A stretch of 64,000 nucleotides of DNA from Haloferacaceae archaeon 50 (GCA_046097085.1 CP175567.1:1355875-1419874), one strand, 5' to 3'. Positions 31,379 through 43,040 are shown, counted from the first letter of the stretch. A program made the numbers and translations. The notes: generated by a model not told the origin, from the sequence alone.

Positions 31379-32623
31379 TCACTCCCGCTCGCGTTCGAGT
31401 TCGCGGTCCGACTCGTCCGCCGCCGCGTCCTCGTCGCCGCCGGTCGGGGCGTCCTCGCGGCCGTCCCCGGGCGCGCTCTCGGGCTCCGCGGCCGTCTCCG
31501 AGGCGCCCCCGGCCACGGGCTCTTCCTCGTTCGCGTCCGCGATTATCTCGTCCGCGCTCTTGAGGTCGGTGCCCGCGCCGGCCTTGATGGCCTCGGCCTC
31601 CTTCTCCAGTTCCTCCACGTCCATCTCGGCCGCCTCGTCTATCTGGCCGAGTATCTCGTCGATGTCGTCGAGGCCGATGAGTTCGCGCGTCTCCGCGTCG
31701 AACTCCAGGCTGTCGAGTCCGGCCGTCTCCTGTACGTCGCTGTCGGTCAACTGCTTGCCGTAGCGCCCCAGCAACGACGTCAGCTCCTGTGGCAACACGA
31801 ACGTGGTGGACTCGCCCTCGCCGATGCGTTCGAGCGTCTCCATCCCGCGCTCGATGACGGCGCGTTCGCCCATCGACTCGGCGGACTTCGCGCGTAGCAC
31901 CGTGGAGATGGCGTCGCCCTGCGCTTCGAGTATCTGGGACTGCTTCTCGCCCTGCGCCCGGATGATGTTCGACTGCTTCTCTCCCTCCGCCTGCTCGACG
32001 GCGCTGCGGCGTTCACCCTGCGCCTCCAGAATCATGGCGCGGCGGCGACGCTCCGCGGAGGTCTGTTGCTCCATCGCCTGCTGGACGTCCGCCGAGGGGT
32101 TGACCTCGCGCACCTCCACCGACTCGACGCGCACGCCCCACTCGTCGGTGGGTTCGTCGAGTTCCTTCCGGATGCGCGCGTTTATCTCCTGTCGCTTGTT
32201 GAGCGTGTCGTCGAGTTCCATGTCGCCCAGCACCGCACGGAGGGTGGTCTGGGCGAGGTTGGAGACGGCGCGCTTGTAGTCGTCGACTTCGAGGAACGCC
32301 TTGCGCGCGTCCATCACCTTGATGTAGACCACCGCGTCGGCGGTGACCGGCGAGTTGTCGCGAGTGATAGCCTCCTGTCGGGGCACGTCGAGCGTCTGCG
32401 TACGCATGTCGAACGGGTACGTCCGCGAGACGAACGGCGGGATGAAGTTGATACCCGGTTCGAGTAGCTTGCGGTACTCCCCGAACACCGTGAGCGCCTG
32501 CTTCTCGTAGGCGTCCACGATAGCCACCATCTGGTAGACTGTCACCACGGCGAGGACGAGGACGAGTAGACCCACTATCAGCGGTAGGCCGACCAGCCCC
32601 GTCTGGAGTGGTACGGGAACCAT
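31379..32623 (-). CDS. SPFH/Band-7 (stomatin/prohibitin-like) membrane protein with long acidic coiled-coil tail
   Basis: 414 aa; N-terminal TM then SPFH core (FGEYRKLLEPGINFIPPFV...QTLDVPRQEAITRDN...), Ala/Glu/Gln-rich repeats, acidic C-terminus. Confidence 0.9.
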   Translation of the reverse strand: MVPVPLQTGLVGLPLIVGLLVLVLAVVTVYQMVAIVDAYEKQALTVFGEYRKLLEPGINFIPPFVSRTYPFDMRTQTLDVPRQEAITRDNSPVTADAVVYIKVMDARKAFLEVDDYKRAVSNLAQTTLRAVLGDMELDDTLNKRQEINARIRKELDEPTDEWGVRVESVEVREVNPSADVQQAMEQQTSAERRRRAMILEAQGERRSAVEQAEGEKQSNIIRAQGEKQSQILEAQGDAISTVLRAKSAESMGERAVIERGMETLERIGEGESTTFVLPQELTSLLGRYGKQLTDSDVQETAGLDSLEFDAETRELIGLDDIDEILGQIDEAAEMDVEELEKEAEAIKAGAGTDLKSADEIIADANEEEPVAGGASETAAEPESAPGDGREDAPTGGDEDAAADESDRELERERE

Positions 32624-32822
32624 AACTCGGGCTTAGTGTGTGCGTGTGATAAGGGTTCGCCTCACAGTCGCGGCGGTCGTACCGCCGTGTCCGGCGGATT
32701 ACGACCGGCTACGGCCATGGTCGTCGGCCGGTGCGCCGTCGGAGTCAGACGCGCCTCCGGACGTCACAGTGCGGCCCCGCGGTCATCCCCCGCACGTCGG
32801 CGTCCGAGCCGTCACCGCTCTC

Positions 32823-34346
32823 TCAGTCCGCCATCGTATCGCTGTAACCGGGCGGCGACTGGATACGGACGAACGGCGGTTCGTCGATGTTGTCGACGAG
32901 ACGGCTCGACCCCACGTACCCCATGGGGGACTTCTCCAGTGTGAGGTACTGGAGTCCGTTGTCGTGGCGCCACAGCTCCAGCGCCTGCGACGCGTTGTTC
33001 GTGAAGAACTCCTCGATATCTTCGGGCACCGTGTCGGGGTTGTGGACGTACACCGTCGTACTGTCGTCGGTGAGCAGGTGCGTCTCCTGCCACCGGTGCA
33101 GTTCCATAATCTGATCGGCGGTGAGGTGTCTCGCCGCCGTCTCCGTGTCGATGAACGTCGAAAGTGAACGCTCTTCCCGACGGTCGTCGATGAGTTGGAG
33201 CAGGTGCTCGATTCCACCCTGTTCCTGTGCCAGCGTGTAGACGTTGTTCTGGGCGGTTTCCTGTTTGCTCGTAACGTCGATGACGAACAGCCTATCCGAG
33301 TCTAGGAGCTCCGTAACCCGGTCCGGGTTCTCCGGAAACAGCTGGTCGAGGAGTTCGGACTTCGATCCTACCTTCGGCACCATCAGCAGGACGGCGTTGC
33401 CTTCCTCCAGTTGGTACTTCAACAGCGGAAGAAACAGCGGACGGAGGTCGACGTAGCCGTCGTGTTTGAACACGACGGACTCACCCCTGATGAACCCGCC
33501 GCCCAACAGCTCGTTGAGGCCCGAGATGTGCGTGTCCATGAACGACGCCTCGGAACGTCCCATATCGACCGGGTTCCGATTGCGCGGGATAATGTACACG
33601 CCTCCATCGTTGAACTCGATCTCGTACGATCGGGTGTCGTGATTGACGCCGCGCATCTTCAGCACCTGGAGAAACCGGTGAAAGTCGCTCCGGATCTCTT
33701 CGAGCCAGAGCCGAATGACACCGTGGGCGTTGTACTGTAGCGGGTCTATGGTGCTGGCGGTCTGGTCGGCCATGTATCCTCCCTCCGAGACGAGCAGTGC
33801 GGTCGCCTCGAACTCGTCGCTGAACAGTCGAATGAGGTCGAGGATGGCCCGGCGGAACACGTCCCGGTTGTCGGTCATCGCCTGCAACCCGGAGACGCTG
33901 TCGACGACGACGCGGTCTGCCGGGGCGTACTGCCCCAGCATCTGACTGACGTACTTCCGGGAGAACGGCGCGGCGTATCCCTCTCCGACTACCTGATTTC
34001 CTTCGAGCGTCTCGACGGTGAGTTTCTCTTGGTCGTCTTCCAGCGTGTAGCCGGGACGCGCCTGAACGGACGTGATTGTCAGGTTCTCGTGGTCGAGGTC
34101 GTAGTCGTACGGGGCGAAGGTGTCCCGGAGTTCGGACGGTGTCTGTTCCGTGGAGACGAACAGACACTCGTCGCCCTCTCGTATCCCCTCCTGTAAGAAC
34201 TGCATCGAGAGCGTCGACTTCCCCGTACCCGGCCCGCCCGTAACGAGAACTGACCGGTTTCGAGGGAGTCCGCCTCCGAGAATGCGATCGAGCGTTTCGT
34301 TTCCTGTCGACACGACTTCCCGTATTGCGTCAGGCATCTCGTCCAC
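32823..34346 (-). CDS. KaiC/RecA-superfamily ATPase, tandem-domain with intact N-terminal Walker A and degenerate second domain
   Basis: 507 aa; LDRILGGGLPRNRSVLVTGGPGTGKSTLSMQF (KaiC-type Walker A), Walker B LLVSE-like; second half (NELLGGGFIRGESVVFKHDGYV...) aligns to a KaiC domain that has lost the P-loop. Gene lies in a ~58-60% GC island. Confidence 0.8.
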   Translation of the reverse strand: MDEMPDAIREVVSTGNETLDRILGGGLPRNRSVLVTGGPGTGKSTLSMQFLQEGIREGDECLFVSTEQTPSELRDTFAPYDYDLDHENLTITSVQARPGYTLEDDQEKLTVETLEGNQVVGEGYAAPFSRKYVSQMLGQYAPADRVVVDSVSGLQAMTDNRDVFRRAILDLIRLFSDEFEATALLVSEGGYMADQTASTIDPLQYNAHGVIRLWLEEIRSDFHRFLQVLKMRGVNHDTRSYEIEFNDGGVYIIPRNRNPVDMGRSEASFMDTHISGLNELLGGGFIRGESVVFKHDGYVDLRPLFLPLLKYQLEEGNAVLLMVPKVGSKSELLDQLFPENPDRVTELLDSDRLFVIDVTSKQETAQNNVYTLAQEQGGIEHLLQLIDDRREERSLSTFIDTETAARHLTADQIMELHRWQETHLLTDDSTTVYVHNPDTVPEDIEEFFTNNASQALELWRHDNGLQYLTLEKSPMGYVGSSRLVDNIDEPPFVRIQSPPGYSDTMAD

Positions 34347-34719
34347 ACATTCAGGCCTCCGTTACTTAACATTAAGCTGATTATATGCGAAATGAGAGAT
34401 AATCACGAGCGGTCGACAGTCATCTGTCCGACGCCCGAAGAGTAGTGTGAGACGGAGCGGCGGGGTTCGGTCGACTGCCACGCTATCGAGAGCGTAGGCT
34501 CCATCGGCTCCGGCGTCCCATTTCGGGTACCGCCGCGGGTCGGCAGTCGGACGTGAGAACGACGGGCCGAGGCGCGTCCGATGGCCGCCGCCGGAACTGT
34601 TCGCCGTCCGGGCGTGACGTTACCGGCCTCCGGAGAGTCGCCCGAACCGACTGGAGAGTCGCGCGGCCGTGGTGACCTCCGACGTCTTCGCCAGTTCGAG
34701 AGCGGCGGGGCGGACCGAT

Positions 34720-35775
34720 CTACTTCTGCCCCTCGCTGTCGAGGTGGAACTGGAGGACCGTCTCCATCCCGTCGAGCAGCGCCCGAATATCGACCGTCTC
34801 CAGTTCGGGGGTGCGTTCGAGTTCCTCGTGGTACTGTTGCCACTGGTCGAGGAACGTGCCCTGGACGTCGTTGCGCTTGACCCGCTCACGAGCCGAGTCC
34901 ACCACGTCCTCCGTCGGGTTCGCCCACAGTCGTCGTAGGTCCCGGTCGGTTATGATGCCCGTCTCGTAGGCGTAGGCCACCACGCCGGAGGTGAAATCCC
35001 CTTCCGCAAGTTCGCGCTGCCACGTACTCACCCAGTTCCCGATGCGCGCCATCTTCTGGGCCTTCCAGAGCGTGGTCCGGAGCGTGGCGAACTCTTCACG
35101 GTTGAATCTCGTGGAGTGCATCAGATCGACGTCCGAGAAGGCGAGCATGACCATGTTGTGGGAACTGTACGCGTACGCCTCCGTCGTGTTGGCCGAGTAC
35201 GGGTGGTTGTTTACGATGTACGCGTACCGCACCGCGTTCAGCGTCTGTTGCAGGTCGAAGCGGAACAGGTCGGCGTACTCCCTGAACCGCGGCGCAATCC
35301 GGAGTGATCGTTCGAGTTCGTCCCATACGTCGACGGCGAGGCCGAGGCAGTCTTCGTTGACGCCGCACCTGTCGAAGTTCACGGAGAGATGGTTGAACGG
35401 GATTTTGGCGGCCTCCTGGAACGTCGTCCGATCGTTCTGGTCGTCGACGAGGTCGTCGAGAAGGGTCACGTAAAACGTGAGGAGGGTCTTGTCGTTCTGC
35501 ACCTTGTCCCTGTACCTCTCGTTCACCGTCGAGAGGCGGAAATACGGACTCAGAAAGTGGAACCACTTCCAGAGGAACCGGTCACGGATGCCGACGACGT
35601 CGTCGTACTTGTCGGCGATAGCTTCGAGGTTGCCGGGGAGGTCGTACTCCTCTACTTCTCTCATTATTCGTTCAGGATGTATTATACGTTCAGGGACTAA
35701 AATAACACTCATCCGCTCTAGTTCTCGCGTGTCTCTCGCGCGGGCCTCCGTTTCGGGCGTCGTCAATCGACGCAC
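34720..35775 (-). CDS. hypothetical all-alpha protein with class I terpene-synthase-like motifs (DDLVDD and NWVSTWQRE)
   Basis: 351 aa (alternative start MSVILV at 35709); FYVTLLDDLVDDQND (DDxxD preceded by aromatic/hydrophobic helix) and ~140 aa downstream IGNWVSTWQRELAEGD (compare NDLFSYQRE NSE/DTE motif of bacterial terpene cyclases). Low-GC island gene; function inferred from motifs only. Confidence 0.55.
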   Translation of the reverse strand: MRRLTTPETEARARDTRELERMSVILVPERIIHPERIMREVEEYDLPGNLEAIADKYDDVVGIRDRFLWKWFHFLSPYFRLSTVNERYRDKVQNDKTLLTFYVTLLDDLVDDQNDRTTFQEAAKIPFNHLSVNFDRCGVNEDCLGLAVDVWDELERSLRIAPRFREYADLFRFDLQQTLNAVRYAYIVNNHPYSANTTEAYAYSSHNMVMLAFSDVDLMHSTRFNREEFATLRTTLWKAQKMARIGNWVSTWQRELAEGDFTSGVVAYAYETGIITDRDLRRLWANPTEDVVDSARERVKRNDVQGTFLDQWQQYHEELERTPELETVDIRALLDGMETVLQFHLDSEGQK

Positions 35776-35819
35776 GTCCCCCTCTCGGATGGAGTAGCGC
35801 GACGGTCAGTACGGGCCGG

Positions 35820-36431
35820 TCACTCCCGCTCTGTCTCGGGTTCGGTCCCCGTCTGCCGTCCGCTCTGCGTCTCCGAGGCCGTCCGACCCCGCGCGAGTTC
35901 GCGGTCTATCTCGTCTTCGAAACTCGACACCGCCTCGACGGTGACGACGTTGCCGCCGCCGGGGTCGACCACCATCACCTCCGTGCCCTCGGGTATCTCG
36001 CCGTCGACCGACCGCGCGGAGTAGTAGGGGTTGAAGCCGCCGGCGTCCAGTTTGATCTGGCCCGACCTCGGCGTGACGCGCTCCGTCACCCGGCCCGTCT
36101 TGCCCGTGAGCGCCGCCGAGTCGCTGGTGCGCCCCGCGCCCTTCCCGCCGTACACGTCGAGTTCGCGGTAGCCCCAGAGGGCGACGCCGCCGAACACCAA
36201 CACGAGGAGACCGAGGACAAGCGTCCCGGCCAGCGGACCCAGCGCGGGGCCGACTACCATCCCCACGAGTCCGGCGGCGAGGAGCGCCACGCCGAGGACG
36301 ATGAAGTGCGCGCCGGGCGACAGCGCTTCGGCCACCGAGAGGCCGAGACCTGCCAGTACCAGCAGGAGCGGGAGCACGCTCGGGTCCGTCGGGTCGAGTT
36401 GTAGGAGCGGACCGAGGGGCGGGCTGACCAT
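35820..36431 (-). CDS. NfeD-family membrane protein (short form, OB-fold C-terminal domain)
   Basis: 203 aa; N-terminal hydrophobic helices then GKTGRVTERVTPRSGQIKLDAGGFNPYYSARSVDGEIPEGTEVMVVDPGGGNVVTVE beta-barrel region typical of NfeD partners of stomatins. Confidence 0.8.
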   Translation of the reverse strand: MVSPPLGPLLQLDPTDPSVLPLLLVLAGLGLSVAEALSPGAHFIVLGVALLAAGLVGMVVGPALGPLAGTLVLGLLVLVFGGVALWGYRELDVYGGKGAGRTSDSAALTGKTGRVTERVTPRSGQIKLDAGGFNPYYSARSVDGEIPEGTEVMVVDPGGGNVVTVEAVSSFEDEIDRELARGRTASETQSGRQTGTEPETERE

Positions 36432-36488: not shown

Positions 36489-37721
36489 TCACTGTGCGAC
36501 GGTTGCGCCGACCCCCGCCGCCGGGAGCGGCGGGCGCAGGTCGACCGCCGACACCGCGGCGCGGAGGGCGTCGAGCGATGCGGACGCCGACTCGGCGGCC
36601 GACGTCTCACTCTCCAACGCGGATTCCGATTCGGACTCGGACTCGGTCCCGGAACTGGACCCGGACTCCGACGACGGGGCGTCGAACTCGACGGTCAGCG
36701 ACGGGTCGTGGACGAACCGCACGCCCGGCCCGTCGGCGGCCAGTCCGTCCCGGACCAGCACCGTGCCGGTCGTGGCGTTCGTCGGGACGGTGAACACCGC
36801 CCACACCGTGCCGGCGTCGCCGGGCGCGAACCGGTCCATCGTCTTGAGGTTCCCGCCCGAGAGGGACTGCGGGCCGTAGCGCACGCCGTCGGACTCGAAG
36901 AGGAGGGTCGGCCCCCCGAACATCGCGGCCTCGCCCGCGGTGCTGGACACGTCGAGTCTGACCAGCACGAACGTCTCGTTCGGCGGCGCCTCGAACGTGC
37001 CGCCGGGCGGGTCGAGCGTCGACCGCGTCTCCGCGCGCCACCGCACCGTCAGCGACTCGCTCGCCTCCGGCGTCGCCGTGGAGACGGCGGACACCGCGAT
37101 GTCCGGGCCGCCACCGCCGCCGGTCGGCACCCCGATGACGACGCCGCTGGTCAGCACCGCCACCGCCACGACGACGGCCAGCAGGTGCTTCGGGTTGCTC
37201 GCCGCGCGGGCGCGCAGCGCCGCCGTCGCCGCGCCGTCGGCCGCGCCTGGGAGCGCGGCGCGGAGCCTCGCCAGCCAGTCGCCGCCGTCGGCCCGGTCCT
37301 CGTCGTCCTCCGCTCCGCTCTCGTCCGCGCCCTCCGTCTCGCCGCCGTCGCGGTGGCGGCGTAGCACCGCCTCGAACCCGCCCTGCTGTACGGTCTTCTC
37401 GAGGCGGCCGCGGTCGAGGAGGTGGACGCCGCGGTCGGACGCGATGCGGCGCACCTCGTCCGTGAACGTGCCCTGTGTCGCCACGACTGCCACGTCGACG
37501 CCGCGGCTCCCGCACATCTCCGCGAACCGACGGAGGTGGGCCGTCCGCACCTCGGTGTCCGGATCGGGGAGCACCAGCATCAGCCCGCGTGTCCCGCCGC
37601 CGCGCTCACCGCCGACGAGGTACGCGTCGTCGCCGCGGCGCGTCGTGTCCGTCTGCCACCCCTGTTCGCGCCACAGGTCGGCGAGGAGGCGGGGGAACGC
37701 GGCCGTCGGGAGGGGGTCCAT
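36489..37721 (-). CDS. membrane protein with N-terminal Mrr-cat (restriction-endonuclease-fold) domain, single TM and extracytoplasmic Ser/Thr/Glu-rich domain
   Basis: 410 aa; FPRLLADLWREQGWQTDTTRRGDDAYLVGGER...LMLVLPD...AVVATQGTFTDEVRRIASDRGVHLLDRGRL fits the Mrr_cat/PD-(D/E)xK core; TM LLAVVVAVAVLTSGVVIGV; C-terminal acidic ESESESE tail. Confidence 0.6.
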   Translation of the reverse strand: MDPLPTAAFPRLLADLWREQGWQTDTTRRGDDAYLVGGERGGGTRGLMLVLPDPDTEVRTAHLRRFAEMCGSRGVDVAVVATQGTFTDEVRRIASDRGVHLLDRGRLEKTVQQGGFEAVLRRHRDGGETEGADESGAEDDEDRADGGDWLARLRAALPGAADGAATAALRARAASNPKHLLAVVVAVAVLTSGVVIGVPTGGGGGPDIAVSAVSTATPEASESLTVRWRAETRSTLDPPGGTFEAPPNETFVLVRLDVSSTAGEAAMFGGPTLLFESDGVRYGPQSLSGGNLKTMDRFAPGDAGTVWAVFTVPTNATTGTVLVRDGLAADGPGVRFVHDPSLTVEFDAPSSESGSSSGTESESESESALESETSAAESASASLDALRAAVSAVDLRPPLPAAGVGATVAQ

Positions 37722-39979: not shown

Positions 39980-41746
39980 TCAGTTGCGCCCCCGGCGGTC
40001 GTGTTTCAGCACGTCGCCCTCGTACACCACGCCGCGTTCGGCGTCGAGGGTCACGACGGTGCCGTCGGCGACCGACTCGTGGATGGGCGCGCCGCTTATC
40101 ATGGGGATGTCGAGTTCGCGCGCCACCATCGCGGGGTAGCCGGTCATGCCGGGTCGGGCGTCGATGATGCCGGCGAGGTCGGCGGCGTCGGCGTCGAACT
40201 CGCCCTCGAACCCGGCGGGGAGGTGGAGGAGCGACCCGGCGGGCACGTCGCCCACCTCGTCGTCGGTCGCCCGGACGAGCGGACCCGTGACGCGGCCGCC
40301 GACTATCTTCCGGCCCGAGGCCACCGCCTCGGCCGCGACGTGGACTTTCAGCATGTTGGTGGTGTTGGTGCCCTCCAGTTCGGACATCATGCCCGAGAGC
40401 ACGACCACGGTGTCGCCGCTCTCGGTCAGGCCGCTGTCCATCGCGGCGTCGACGGCGTTGTCGATGATGGCGTCCACGCTCTCGCGGTAGTCGGCGTACT
40501 GAGGTTTGACCCCCCACGAGAGCGCGAGTTGGCGGCGCACGCGGTCGTTGGGGGTGGTCGCCACCACGGGCACCGCCGGCCGGAACTTGGCGGTCTTGCG
40601 CGCGGTGTAGCCCGACTCCGACGCCGCGACGACGGCCGTCGCGCCCACGTCGCGCGCGAGGTAGCGCGCCGACCACGCCAGCGCCTCGGTCCGGGAGTCC
40701 TCGGCGGCCTCGGGCACTCGCTGTTCGACGCTCTCGGCGTACTCGTCGCTCGCCTCCACCTGCCGCACGATGCGGTCCATCGTCCGCACCACGCGCACGG
40801 GGTGGTCGCCCACCGCCGTCTCCGCGGAGAGCATCACGGCGTCCGTGCCGTCGAGAACGGCGTTGGCCACGTCTGACGCCTCCGCGCGGGTGGGCCGCCG
40901 GGCGTGGACCATCGAGTCGAGCATCTCCGTCGCCGTGATGACGGGCACGCCCGCGGCCTGACACTTCTTGATGATGCGCTTCTGGACCATCGGCACGTCC
41001 TCCAGCGGACACTCGACGCCGAGGTCGCCCCGCGCCACCATCACGCCGTAGGCGGCGTCGACGATACCGTCGAGGTTCTCCACCGCGCCCGAGCGCTCTA
41101 TCTTGGCCACCACCGGGATGTCGCCGCCCTCCTCCTCGATGGCGTCGGAGATGGCGTACACGTCGCTCGCGTCGCGCACGAAACTCGCCGCCACGAAGTC
41201 GGCGTCCTTCTGGGCGGCGAGGCGTATCTCGTCGCGGTCGGCCTCGGTGATGAGGTCGATGTCGAGGTTGACGCCCGGCACGTTCACACCCTTGCGCCCG
41301 CCGAGGTCGCCGCCGGAGACGATTTCGGTCACGACGGCCCCGTCCTCGGCGTCGACCCGCTTCACCCGGGCCTCGATGCGTCCGTCGTCCAAGAGCACGG
41401 TGTCGCCCGGCGACGCCGCGGCGATAGAGTACGAGAGGCCCACCTCCTCGGGGGTGGCCTCGTCGCCCTCGACGAACCGGACCTCCGACCCGGTGTCGAG
41501 GTGGATGGGCGCCGACAGCGGCGCGGTCCGCACCTCCGGCCCCTGCAGGTCCACCATCGCGGCGAGTGGGTCGTCGGTCACCTCGTCCACCTCGCGGACA
41601 AGGTCGATTATCTCGGCGCGGTCCTCGGTGGTCCCGTGGCTCGCGTTCAATCGGGCCACCGACATGCCGGCCTCCGCGAGGTCGCGGACGGTGGACCGGT
41701 CGTCAGACGCCGGTCCGAGCGTGCAGACGATCTTTGCCTTTCTCAT
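39980..41746 (-). CDS. pykA: pyruvate kinase with C-terminal PEP-utilizer mobile domain
   Basis: Start at internal Met (MRKAKIVCTLGPASDD), 588 aa; conserved PK blocks (MVARGDLGVE, ATEMLDSM) and C-terminal PEP-utilizers-like domain. Confidence 0.9.
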   Translation of the reverse strand: MRKAKIVCTLGPASDDRSTVRDLAEAGMSVARLNASHGTTEDRAEIIDLVREVDEVTDDPLAAMVDLQGPEVRTAPLSAPIHLDTGSEVRFVEGDEATPEEVGLSYSIAAASPGDTVLLDDGRIEARVKRVDAEDGAVVTEIVSGGDLGGRKGVNVPGVNLDIDLITEADRDEIRLAAQKDADFVAASFVRDASDVYAISDAIEEEGGDIPVVAKIERSGAVENLDGIVDAAYGVMVARGDLGVECPLEDVPMVQKRIIKKCQAAGVPVITATEMLDSMVHARRPTRAEASDVANAVLDGTDAVMLSAETAVGDHPVRVVRTMDRIVRQVEASDEYAESVEQRVPEAAEDSRTEALAWSARYLARDVGATAVVAASESGYTARKTAKFRPAVPVVATTPNDRVRRQLALSWGVKPQYADYRESVDAIIDNAVDAAMDSGLTESGDTVVVLSGMMSELEGTNTTNMLKVHVAAEAVASGRKIVGGRVTGPLVRATDDEVGDVPAGSLLHLPAGFEGEFDADAADLAGIIDARPGMTGYPAMVARELDIPMISGAPIHESVADGTVVTLDAERGVVYEGDVLKHDRRGRN

Positions 41747-41821
41747 GCGCCGGGCTACGCCCGAGCGGGTGAAAAATCCCCCCAATGCCACTCGTGGCCG
41801 AGTAAACGGCCGTCGGCGCGC

Positions 41822-42922
41822 CTACTCGGCGGAGGCGCGCCGAACGCCCGTGAACTCGAAGCGCGCGCCGCCGCGGTCGCTCTCCGTCAACGAGACGTCC
41901 CAGCCATGGGCCGCGGCGACGTGCCGCACGATGGCGAGGCCGAACCCCGTGCCGTCCGAGGCCGTCGTGACGCCCGACTCGAACGCCCGGTCACGGACCT
42001 CCGGGGGGACGCCCGGACCGTCGTCGGCCACGTAGAACCCGTCGCCGCCCGGGAGCGGTCCGACCCGCACGCTGACTCCCGGGTCGGCGTCGCACGCGAC
42101 TTCGTTTGACTCCGTCCGGCTGTTCGTCGAACCGTGTTCGACGGCGTCGCCGGACCCCGTCCGGCTGTCCGTGGAGCCGTACTCCACGCTATTCCGAAAC
42201 AGGTTCTCGAACAGCTGTCTCAGACGCGTCTCGTCGCCCTCGACGGTGCCGAGGCCGTCGTCGACGGTCAGCGTCCCTCGCTCGTCGGCGCTGGTCCGCC
42301 ACGCGTCGCGGGCCACCTCGGCCAGCGACACGGGGCGGCACCGCCCGAGCACCGACCCCGCCCGCGCGAGGCGCAACACGTCGTCGACGAGTTCCGACAT
42401 CCGGTCGAGCGCCGACGCGGCGCGCCGGAGGTGTTCGGAGTCGCAGTCCGCCGCCGCGAGGTCCAGCCGCCCTTTCGCCACGGTCAGCGGACTCCTGAGG
42501 TCGTGTGACACCACCGACGCGAACTCCTCCAAGCGCTCGTTCCGCCGGCGGACCTCCCGGGTCGCCCGCGAGGGCGTCGCCCGACGCGCCACGCGGTCGG
42601 CCGCGTTCGCGTACGTCGCGTCTCCCTCCCCGGTCGCGTCGTCCGCCCCGCCCGCGACGGTCGACGCCGGGTCGACGTCCGGGACGAACGCCACCGGCAG
42701 GTCGTTCACGCCCGGCGTCCGCGCCACCTCGCGCAGCAGTCCCGCCGGCGGGTGGTCCGCGTCGACGACGAGACAGTCCGCCCCCACGAGGTCGAGTGCG
42801 TCCGTCGACCCGTCGGCGGCCGCGACTGAGAGGTCGTCCCGCGCGCGTTCAAGCGCCCACGCGACCCGCTCACCCGCGTCCGCCTCCGAACTGGCGAGTA
42901 CGGCCCGTACGTCCCCACCCAT
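41822..42922 (-). CDS. sensor histidine kinase (receiver-like N-terminal domain, HisKA, HATPase_c)
   Basis: Start at Met 42922 (MGGDVRAVL...), 366 aa; H-box FASVVSHDLRSPL, N-box LFENLFRNSVEYG, G-box DDGPGVPPE...GTGFGLAIV; internal 14-aa tandem duplication in the ATPase domain. Confidence 0.8.
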   Translation of the reverse strand: MGGDVRAVLASSEADAGERVAWALERARDDLSVAAADGSTDALDLVGADCLVVDADHPPAGLLREVARTPGVNDLPVAFVPDVDPASTVAGGADDATGEGDATYANAADRVARRATPSRATREVRRRNERLEEFASVVSHDLRSPLTVAKGRLDLAAADCDSEHLRRAASALDRMSELVDDVLRLARAGSVLGRCRPVSLAEVARDAWRTSADERGTLTVDDGLGTVEGDETRLRQLFENLFRNSVEYGSTDSRTGSGDAVEHGSTNSRTESNEVACDADPGVSVRVGPLPGGDGFYVADDGPGVPPEVRDRAFESGVTTASDGTGFGLAIVRHVAAAHGWDVSLTESDRGGARFEFTGVRRASAE

Positions 42923-43040
42923 GACGGATGTACCGTTCGGAGATACCGCAATAAAAATGTCGAACGTCCTTAAGAAAGGGGACGACCTGTGCGCGCCGGA
43001 GTCGGGCGGCGGCGCGCCAGCGGTCGGCCCCACGCCGCCG

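Follow-up and report, generated by a model that had tools for sequence, protein, structure and literature searches.

Before the work of Samusevich et al. (bioRxiv 10.1101/2024.01.29.577750), no archaeal terpene cyclization had been reported. The three archaeal terpene synthases assayed in that study (accessions A0A5E4I9B1, A0A0E3NXY0 and A0A537EJD0) are the first of their kind, and its fine-tuning set contains, as terpene-synthase-like sequences, two members of the family described below (RIGNWLTTWERE). Its definition of terpene synthase also takes in phytoene/squalene-type synthases. The same preprint predicts terpene synthases widely in Halobacteriota, and NCBI names some homologues of the gene studied here terpene synthase family proteins, so that the statement, made in a preliminary description of this gene, that terpene cyclases are essentially undescribed in Halobacteria is now dated. 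In the literature searched, no haloarchaeal terpene-synthase enzyme or product was found described, and no assay of any member of this family was found.

As a lead, the closest assayed archaeal enzyme appears to be the beta-bisabolol synthase A0A5E4I9B1, the likeness being one of motifs only and taken from the published description. That enzyme carries 67-DDXXD and 221-NTLNTWPRE, and its R24 contacts D68 (bioRxiv 10.1101/2024.01.29.577750); the apparent equivalents in the present protein are D70-DxxD, 210-NWVSTWQRE and R27. The string T-W-x-R-E is common to both, and the offset from the arginine to the aspartate-rich motif is 43 residues in either case (from R24 in A0A5E4I9B1, from R27 to D70 here), whereas the spacing from DDxxD to NSE is 154 residues in the bisabolol synthase and 140 here. 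Like the enzymes of Samusevich et al., the present protein is archaeal, consists of a single alpha domain and is missed by default Pfam thresholds. Bacterial class I synthases (10-epi-cubebol synthase, 7ZRN; selinadiene synthase, 4OKM; pentalenene synthase) are only 8-13% identical to it, and DabA-type prenyltransferases (6VKZ), which have the terpene-synthase fold, show no detectable sequence relationship to the family.

Two haloarchaeal regulatory systems are also relevant to what follows. One is the bat locus of Halobacterium, where blp, a gene of unknown function, is the divergently oriented neighbour of bat and shares its regulation with bop (PMC2253796). The other is found in Haloferax volcanii, which requires both a KaiC-type protein and a Bat-type response regulator in order to respond to an unidentified density cue (PMC13464002).

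The gene described here lies in a 64,000-nucleotide stretch of DNA from Haloferacaceae archaeon 50, the whole of which was analysed (the window). Its product is best placed in a divergent subfamily with the class I terpenoid-synthase fold, a subfamily that has kept the metal/diphosphate site, lacks two accessory features of canonical bacterial cyclases and occurs in signal-transduction contexts.

Identification of the gene and its start codon

The maximal open reading frame of 351 codons, which begins with GTG and occupies positions 34720..35775 of the minus strand, was confirmed in the window. Both motifs originally quoted from it, FYVTLLDDLVDDQND and IGNWVSTWQRELAEGD, were found as quoted; the aspartate pair begins at residue 107, and 140 residues further on, at residue 247, is the asparagine of the second motif. 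The best database match is a 314-amino acid NCBI protein (P0001) that is 100% identical. Because all homologues, including this one, begin at the equivalent of Met38, an ATG at position 35664, the start of the coding sequence was placed there. The annotated GTG start is thus probably wrong and the in-frame extension upstream of the ATG is probably untranslated. An AT-rich, TATA-like stretch (approximately 35680-35707) lies directly upstream of the ATG amid DNA of 60-70% GC and may act as a promoter. Residue numbers given here (D70, N210 and so on) refer to the 314-amino acid protein. The relevant features are:

34720..35664, minus strand: probable true coding sequence of the terpene-synthase-fold protein, 314 aa, stop codon included (from identity to P0001 and the starts of homologues)
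35665..35775, minus strand: upstream in-frame extension of the maximal open reading frame, absent from all homologues
35440..35457, minus strand: Asp-rich motif D70-D-L-V-D-D75 (DDxxD/E), at the C-terminal end of helix 49-74
35011..35037, minus strand: NSE-type motif N210-W-V-S-T214-W-Q-R217-E218, at the C-terminal end of helix 189-220

Structural resemblance to class I terpene synthases

An AlphaFold2 model built on 67 homologues is entirely helical (mean pLDDT 95.7, pTM 0.92), which bears out the all-alpha structure initially predicted. When the model was compared with the PDB using Foldseek, 45 matches were obtained at E <=1e-3, almost all of them class I terpene synthases aligned over their full length; they include hydropyrene, aristolochene, T-muurolol and epi-cubenol synthases, the N-domain of geosmin synthase and TEAS, with TM values of 0.5-0.63. 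The predicted all-helical bundle superposes on solved class I terpene synthases, and, as in these enzymes, each metal motif marks the C-terminal end of a long helix. The class I alpha bundle that a structural comparison had been expected to reveal was therefore recovered, with terpene-synthase-fold matches in both fold searches.

The sequence relationship is more distant. PF19086 (Terpene_syn_C_2) is the only Pfam family that the window protein matches, in keeping with the original proposal, but the score of 21.2-21.7 bits (E about 2e-4) falls below the gathering cut-off of 23.7 bits. PF19086 is matched by 46 of 67 relatives at E <=0.01, with a best E of 2.1e-8, and several relatives carry a precomputed PF19086 label; PF03936 is matched by two of the 67, and no other Pfam family is. 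From these scores the family appears borderline for PF19086. A profile of the family retrieved very few matches from all PDB sequences, most of them terpene synthases (AtTPS18, E 0.024; Sat1646, 0.16; Stt4548, 0.98), and in the AtTPS18 alignment the DDxxD and NSE segments are both in register. A direct search of PDB chains with the window protein returned noise only. By hhalign, the family profile showed no significant similarity to epi-isozizaene synthase or pentalenene synthase; the sole alignment with pentalenene synthase, itself non-significant, places NSE on NSE. The relationship to terpene synthases thus appears remote and rests mainly on structure prediction and motif register. Taken with the conservation of the motif residues (see below), we regard the assignment of the class I terpenoid-synthase fold and of its metal/diphosphate site as highly probable.

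The same data bear on a different assignment, namely that the protein elongates chains as a trans-prenyl diphosphate synthase or is a synthase of squalene/phytoene type, in agreement with the names "geranylgeranyl pyrophosphate synthase" and "polyprenyl synthetase" that UniRef gives to two homologues. Trans-prenyl diphosphate synthases (FPPS/GGPPS, PF00348) have two DDxxD motifs (FARM and SARM), whereas the present family has one, its second motif being N-x3-(S/T)-x3-E. Squalene/phytoene synthases (PF00494) are marked by two Asp-rich DxxxD motifs. Neither PF00348 nor PF00494 is matched by any of the 67 family members, and terpene synthases obtained the higher scores in both fold searches. An activity of this type is accordingly very improbable.

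Conservation of the putative metal site

Sequence conservation was assessed in an alignment of 97 diverse relatives representing all sampled clades, archaeal and bacterial, bacterial fusion proteins included. Only three columns, D71, N210 and E218, are invariant. These are the residues expected to serve as metal ligands, and their invariance provides the strongest evidence for selection acting on the predicted metal/diphosphate site. Conservation of at least 90% was seen for D70, T214, R217, R27, K59, W32, W34, W114, P125 and D137, and likewise for M171, D180, R196, Q203, R207, I208, W215, D223 and W275.

In alignments, the second motif coincides with the NSE/DTE motifs of four terpene synthases (AtTPS18, Sat1646, Stt4548 and pentalenene synthase), and R217 falls at the position of the lysine in the "SLEKE"/"SLPKE" motifs of pentalenene and epi-isozizaene synthases. 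Its description as NSE-like holds for the asparagine, threonine and glutamate (N210, T214 and E218) but not for the position following the asparagine, which is tryptophan or leucine across the family instead of the aspartate of the canonical (N/D)Dxx(S/T)xxxE. Two further features of canonical bacterial cyclases that the preliminary description had proposed to look for are absent. At the position of the diphosphate-sensor arginine, approximately 46 residues upstream of N210, the window protein has a tyrosine (Tyr164); there is no arginine in residues 161-173 (TEAYAYSSHNMVM), and the family has no conserved arginine in this region, H169, N170 and M171 being conserved instead. An RY pair is absent from the last 60 residues, its place being taken in the family by (Y/F)306-H307 and a terminal K314. 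The proposed homology to terpene synthases is thus upheld by the fold, the motif positions and their conservation, and not by the sensor arginine or the RY pair. Besides these absences and the Trp/Leu following the asparagine, the family differs from bacterial class I terpene synthases in the strong family-wide conservation of polar residues.

Asp-rich strings are common in haloarchaeal proteins, and high-GC DNA yields many spurious open reading frames; on these grounds the reading frame might not be a gene, or its product might be an acidic helical protein with some unrelated function in which the two motifs are coincidental. This explanation carries next to no weight and is refuted by the results. 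A word-indexed search returned more than 216 relatives, with E values as low as 1e-210, and those among the matches listed that carry an organism name are haloarchaeal. The motif residues are the invariant columns of the family. The combination of DDxx[DE] and Nxxx[ST]xxxE at a spacing of 125-155 residues arose in only 53 of 20,000 composition-matched shuffles (0.27%) and, of the 129 open frames in the 64-kb window that reach 250 aa or more, is present in this one only; the fold, finally, is predicted with confidence.

Distribution of the family

An exhaustive profile search of 1.84 billion representatives yielded 750 clusters at E <=1e-3 and 416 at E <=1e-30, the clusters (about 750) being defined at 50% identity. 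At least 155 relatives were found in a scan of one genome per species, and the best 80 of these 155 are all from haloarchaea except for two MAG contigs labelled Thermococci and Methanohalobium. Genera with relatives include Haloarcula, Halorubrum, Halosimplex, Natrinema, Natronomonas, Halomarina, Halobellus, Halogranum and Halalkalicoccus, and some genomes carry several paralogues. The family is also present in bacteria. No relatives were found in the viral contigs searched, and no Halobacterium member was seen among the matches listed; a homologue search started from a gene of a Halobacteriaceae MAG led to a clade of REC-HalX fusions (see below) and to no Halobacterium protein. The clade of the window protein consists of short stand-alone proteins, its 27 sampled members being 55-100% identical to the window protein.

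Annotation of the family is sparse. The NCBI name "terpene synthase family protein" is attached to a few members (Halomarina litorea, Halorientalis halophila) and the rest are called hypothetical, as are all homologues in the plasmid records. With representatives of at least 155 haloarchaeal species carrying it, and about 750 clusters in all, the family does not fit the notion of a rare, horizontally acquired cyclase; the window protein is not a one-off horizontal acquisition, nor has its family gone wholly unnoticed. The family is large and well conserved, has a predicted terpene-synthase fold and occurs in some bacteria as well as in most of the haloarchaeal genera sampled.

Gene order at the window locus

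Four genes follow one another on the minus strand, in the order NfeD-like, terpene-synthase-like, KaiC/RecA-type ATPase and SPFH/Band 7. The three that accompany the gene of interest are:

35820..36431, minus strand: NfeD-like membrane protein, upstream flank (Pfam NfeD, E 8.4e-6; GC3 0.88)
32823..34346, minus strand: KaiC/RecA-type ATPase of 507 aa with a C-terminal extension, downstream (Pfam KaiC ATPase, E 2.2e-46)
31379..32623, minus strand: SPFH/Band 7 (stomatin-type) protein, downstream flank (Pfam Band_7, E 6.4e-43; GC3 0.89)

NfeD and SPFH genes usually form an operon pair. Since here they are separated by two genes of lower GC3 (0.80-0.81, the terpene-synthase-like gene having 0.81) than the genes around them (0.88-0.95), an old insertion of the gene pair between the NfeD and SPFH genes is plausible. 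No notable flanking direct or inverted repeats, tRNA, integrase signal or Rfam match was found around the pair. The idea of a strain-specific island was rejected, and the gene's original designation as an "island" protein is not supported: the order NfeD, terpene-synthase-like, KaiC-like is conserved in relatives at 79-86% identity, and the metagenomic contigs concerned (86% and 79% identity) share the longer series DUF7827/DUF7282 protein, Mrr-like, NfeD, terpene-synthase-like and KaiC-like.

The KaiC-like ATPase is the conserved neighbour of the clade. It adjoins the gene in all five contexts of at least 68% identity, being co-directional in the window and at two other loci (L092 and L093) and convergent at L010 and L094; at 68% identity it is still adjacent, but convergent. 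The terpene-synthase-like and KaiC-like genes each have their own AT-rich upstream region, so that co-transcription is not implied. Homologues of prenyl-diphosphate synthase, phytoene synthase or P450 were not found in the 64-kb window. The open reading frame at 41822-43033 of the window encodes a histidine kinase, not a Bat-type regulator.

Association with regulatory genes

Gene neighbourhoods were surveyed at 89 loci, Bat-type regulators being counted with a query specific for BAT/HTH_10. The following were found:

40 of 89 loci: true Bat-type regulator no more than 4.5 kb away, with a BAT/HTH_10 C-terminus and in most cases 786-963 aa long
20 of 89 loci: histidine kinase within 3 kb
12 of 89 loci: REC-HalX fusion, with an adjacent histidine kinase in 10 of the 12
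20 of 89 loci: HalOD1 protein as neighbour
8 of 89 loci: DUF7344 / FilR1-type HTH operon
73 of 89 loci: at least one neighbour or fusion of a signalling or regulatory kind (REC and KaiC-like proteins encoded separately nearby are included)

At the 40 loci with a Bat-type regulator, the family gene lies directly downstream of the regulator gene or divergent from it. The regulator is within 1 kb in 37 instances and upstream in 39, with 20 divergent and 19 co-directional arrangements. Curated annotation of Halorussus halophilus agrees with the census of Bat-type regulators, and that of Halogeometricum pHBOR04 shows a "bacterio-opsin activator domain-containing protein" divergent from the gene, together with HalOD1. 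Biosynthetic neighbours are rare: a P450 occurs at three distinct loci and a methyltransferase at L010 and L094. Linkage to P450 was accordingly dismissed as a general feature, as was linkage to rhodopsin, seen at two loci only. The neighbourhoods of the family are regulatory and not biosynthetic, which again sets it apart from bacterial class I terpene synthases.

Fusions to isoprenoid enzymes and signalling domains

In nearly all relatives among the matches listed, the terpene-synthase-like domain is C-terminal. The N-terminal partners were surveyed among 52 long members:

DXP-synthase/transketolase domains: Transketolase_C in 20 of the 52
full-length DXS: P0198, 915 aa, whose cluster includes a protein from a Phycisphaerae bacterium (HUU98814.1)
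REC or REC-HalX: an extensive haloarchaeal clade whose proteins are some 500-520 aa long
PilZ: P0183, P0196 and P0265
REC-PilZ: P0193
class II HMG-CoA reductase, C-terminal part: P0200
geranylgeranyl-reductase-like FAD domain: P0165
DHBP synthase: P0180, the sole such cluster, found on a contig of 2.5 kb

In many of the fusions the DXS-like part can hardly be recognised. No description of DXS, PilZ or REC fusions of this family was found in the literature. Three of the partners are isoprenoid enzymes, two of which catalyse flux-controlling entry steps of the MEP and mevalonate pathways; the family is therefore tied to isoprenoid metabolism independently of its fold. REC and PilZ are input domains, and their presence suggests that the terpene-synthase-like domain is a regulated output of REC/PilZ modules. 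The genes sit with regulators and not with tailoring enzymes, and the domain would be an output of two-component and c-di-GMP modules.

The partners are also central to the main rival of an enzymatic function, namely that the protein is a sensor of prenyl diphosphates (or of another diphosphate) that makes no product. Occupancy of its Mg2+/diphosphate site would be relayed to a partner, DXS or HMG-CoA reductase in the fusions and Bat-type, HTH or KaiC-like proteins in the neighbourhoods, so as to exert feedback control over isoprenoid flux. Attachment to flux-controlling enzymes of both precursor pathways speaks for such a role, and the poor recognisability of the DXS-like part in many fusions, the regulatory neighbours or fusions at 73 of 89 loci, the strong polar conservation throughout the family and the lack of canonical catalytic accessories all point the same way. 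REC and PilZ, however, are normally placed N-terminal to an effector, which argues for the terpene-synthase-like domain as output; the metal ligands are retained, with D71, N210 and E218 invariant, and five tryptophans are conserved as in catalytic pockets. To our knowledge, the known proteins of terpene-synthase fold are enzymes. On balance a sensing role appears unlikely, its chances being nonetheless appreciable. If correct, it would represent a new use of the terpene-synthase fold.

Another rival is a different chemistry on the same fold, either prenyl transfer to a polar acceptor, as in the N-prenyltransferase DabA, or a reaction of a small phosphorylated substrate related to the products of the fusion partners (DXP, DHBP). 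DHBP synthase as a fusion partner is limited to one cluster on a short contig, however, and the NSE/DDxxD architecture is of the diphosphate-ionization type. We consider such a chemistry improbable.

Possible function

Of the readings considered, that of an Mg2+-dependent, prenyl-diphosphate-ionizing enzyme under signal control seems reasonably probable. The window protein would be a stand-alone, single-domain class I alpha-fold protein with an intact predicted trinuclear-Mg2+/diphosphate site. The metals would be held by D70/D71(/D74) on one helix and by N210/T214/E218 on the opposite helix, and R217, R207, R27 and the C-terminal H307/K314 are candidate ligands of the diphosphate. We infer that the haloarchaeal mevalonate pathway provides the substrate, an all-trans prenyl diphosphate, for which FPP and GGPP are the obvious candidates. 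The metals would assist ionization of the C-O bond, and the resulting allylic cation would then be quenched or cyclized in a pocket presumably lined by the conserved tryptophans W32, W34, W114, W215 and W275. The activity may be coupled to signal transduction, through the KaiC-like ATPase at the present locus and through Bat-type regulators, histidine kinase/REC-HalX or PilZ elsewhere.

Many pocket-facing and polar residues are conserved family-wide; one conserved reaction and product would therefore be expected, not the diversity typical of secondary metabolism. Some of these same residues count against an enzyme, since the conserved polar K59, D137, Q140, D180, R196 and Q203 are unusual for a pocket that shapes a hydrocarbon. 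The sub-threshold Pfam score, the non-significant comparisons with epi-isozizaene and pentalenene synthases, the missing sensor arginine and RY pair, the Trp/Leu after the asparagine, the lack of prenyl-diphosphate synthase, phytoene synthase and P450 genes in the window and the regulatory character of the neighbourhoods weigh in the same direction. Were the family catalytic, it would supply a conserved, regulated terpenoid with a physiological role and not a sporadic secondary metabolite.

It seems conceivable that the family makes (or senses) an isoprenoid-derived signal and that its members are the synthase half of synthase/receptor pairs. This more specific proposal is, in our estimate, rather unlikely. 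The signal would be read by the neighbouring GAF/PAS-containing Bat-type regulator, by HTH proteins or by the KaiC-like ATPase, and its synthesis might be switched by phosphorylation, c-di-GMP or precursor supply in the REC-HalX, PilZ and DXS/HMG-CoA-reductase fusions, respectively. If true, this would be the first terpenoid signalling system in archaea and would offer a candidate route to small-molecule cues acting via KaiC-type and Bat-type proteins in haloarchaea (PMC13464002). The position of Halobacterium Blp (OE3100F/VNG1463G) next to Bat parallels that of the family gene at 40 of the 89 loci, the analogy being purely one of position.

Gene order around the terpene-synthase-like gene

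NfeD and SPFH/Band 7 genes normally form an adjacent operon pair. In the window (31379-36431), the genes for the terpene-synthase-like and KaiC-like proteins sit between the NfeD-like and SPFH/Band 7 genes, and their GC3 is lower (0.80-0.81 versus 0.88-0.95). The order NfeD-like, terpene-synthase-like, KaiC-like is kept in two metagenomic contigs, L092 and L093, where the gene for an Mrr-type protein also occupies the same position as in the window. The latter and two further window genes are as follows:

36489-37721, minus strand: 410-aa protein with an N-terminal Mrr-type restriction-endonuclease domain, two genes upstream of the terpene-synthase-like gene
39980-41791, minus strand: pyruvate kinase with a C-terminal PEP-utilising-enzyme mobile domain
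41822-43033, minus strand: histidine kinase (HisKA and HATPase_c), 6 kb from the terpene-synthase-like gene

The Mrr-type protein also gives a weak match to DUF4352. Assignment of the 41822-43033 product as a Bat-type regulator was rejected; it is a histidine kinase.

Neighbours of related genes

The closest relatives of the window gene (68% identical), at loci L010 and L094, are each adjoined by a divergent gene:

L010:5262-6002: SAM-dependent methyltransferase
L094:5255-5869: SAM-dependent methyltransferase

This arrangement resembles the pairing of a methyltransferase with a terpene synthase in methylated terpenoid pathways. Three paralogues (L010, L011 and L087) occur in a single MAG, Halobacteriales archaeon QS_5_70_17; L010 and L011 lie on the same contig, PXRR01000022.1, and two of the three are separated by about 10 kb. 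In Halovivax ruber, heliorhodopsin and bacteriorhodopsin-type genes (L002:927-3742) are found 4-7 kb upstream of a family member. A general link between rhodopsins and the family was rejected, because a nearby rhodopsin gene occurs at just one further locus, L018.

Domain fusions

The terpene-synthase-like domain is fused to PilZ in protein clusters P0183, P0196 and P0265, to REC-PilZ in P0193, and to REC-HalX in several others (e.g., P0116 at L008:6001-7536); a histidine kinase gene is adjacent in 10 of the 12 REC-HalX cases. Placed at the C-terminus, the domain is the output of modules that bind c-di-GMP and of phosphoreceiver modules.

In bacterial proteins, including P0198 (915 aa) and about ten further clusters of 850-917 aa (HUU98814.1 from a Phycisphaerae bacterium being a cluster member), the domain is fused to a DXP synthase, either full-length or degenerate. 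No description of this architecture was found in the literature searched. Three fusions are each represented by a single cluster: with the C-terminal portion of a class II HMG-CoA reductase (P0200), with DHBP synthase (P0180), and with a geranylgeranyl-reductase-like FAD domain (P0165). The first two may be truncated at contig ends.
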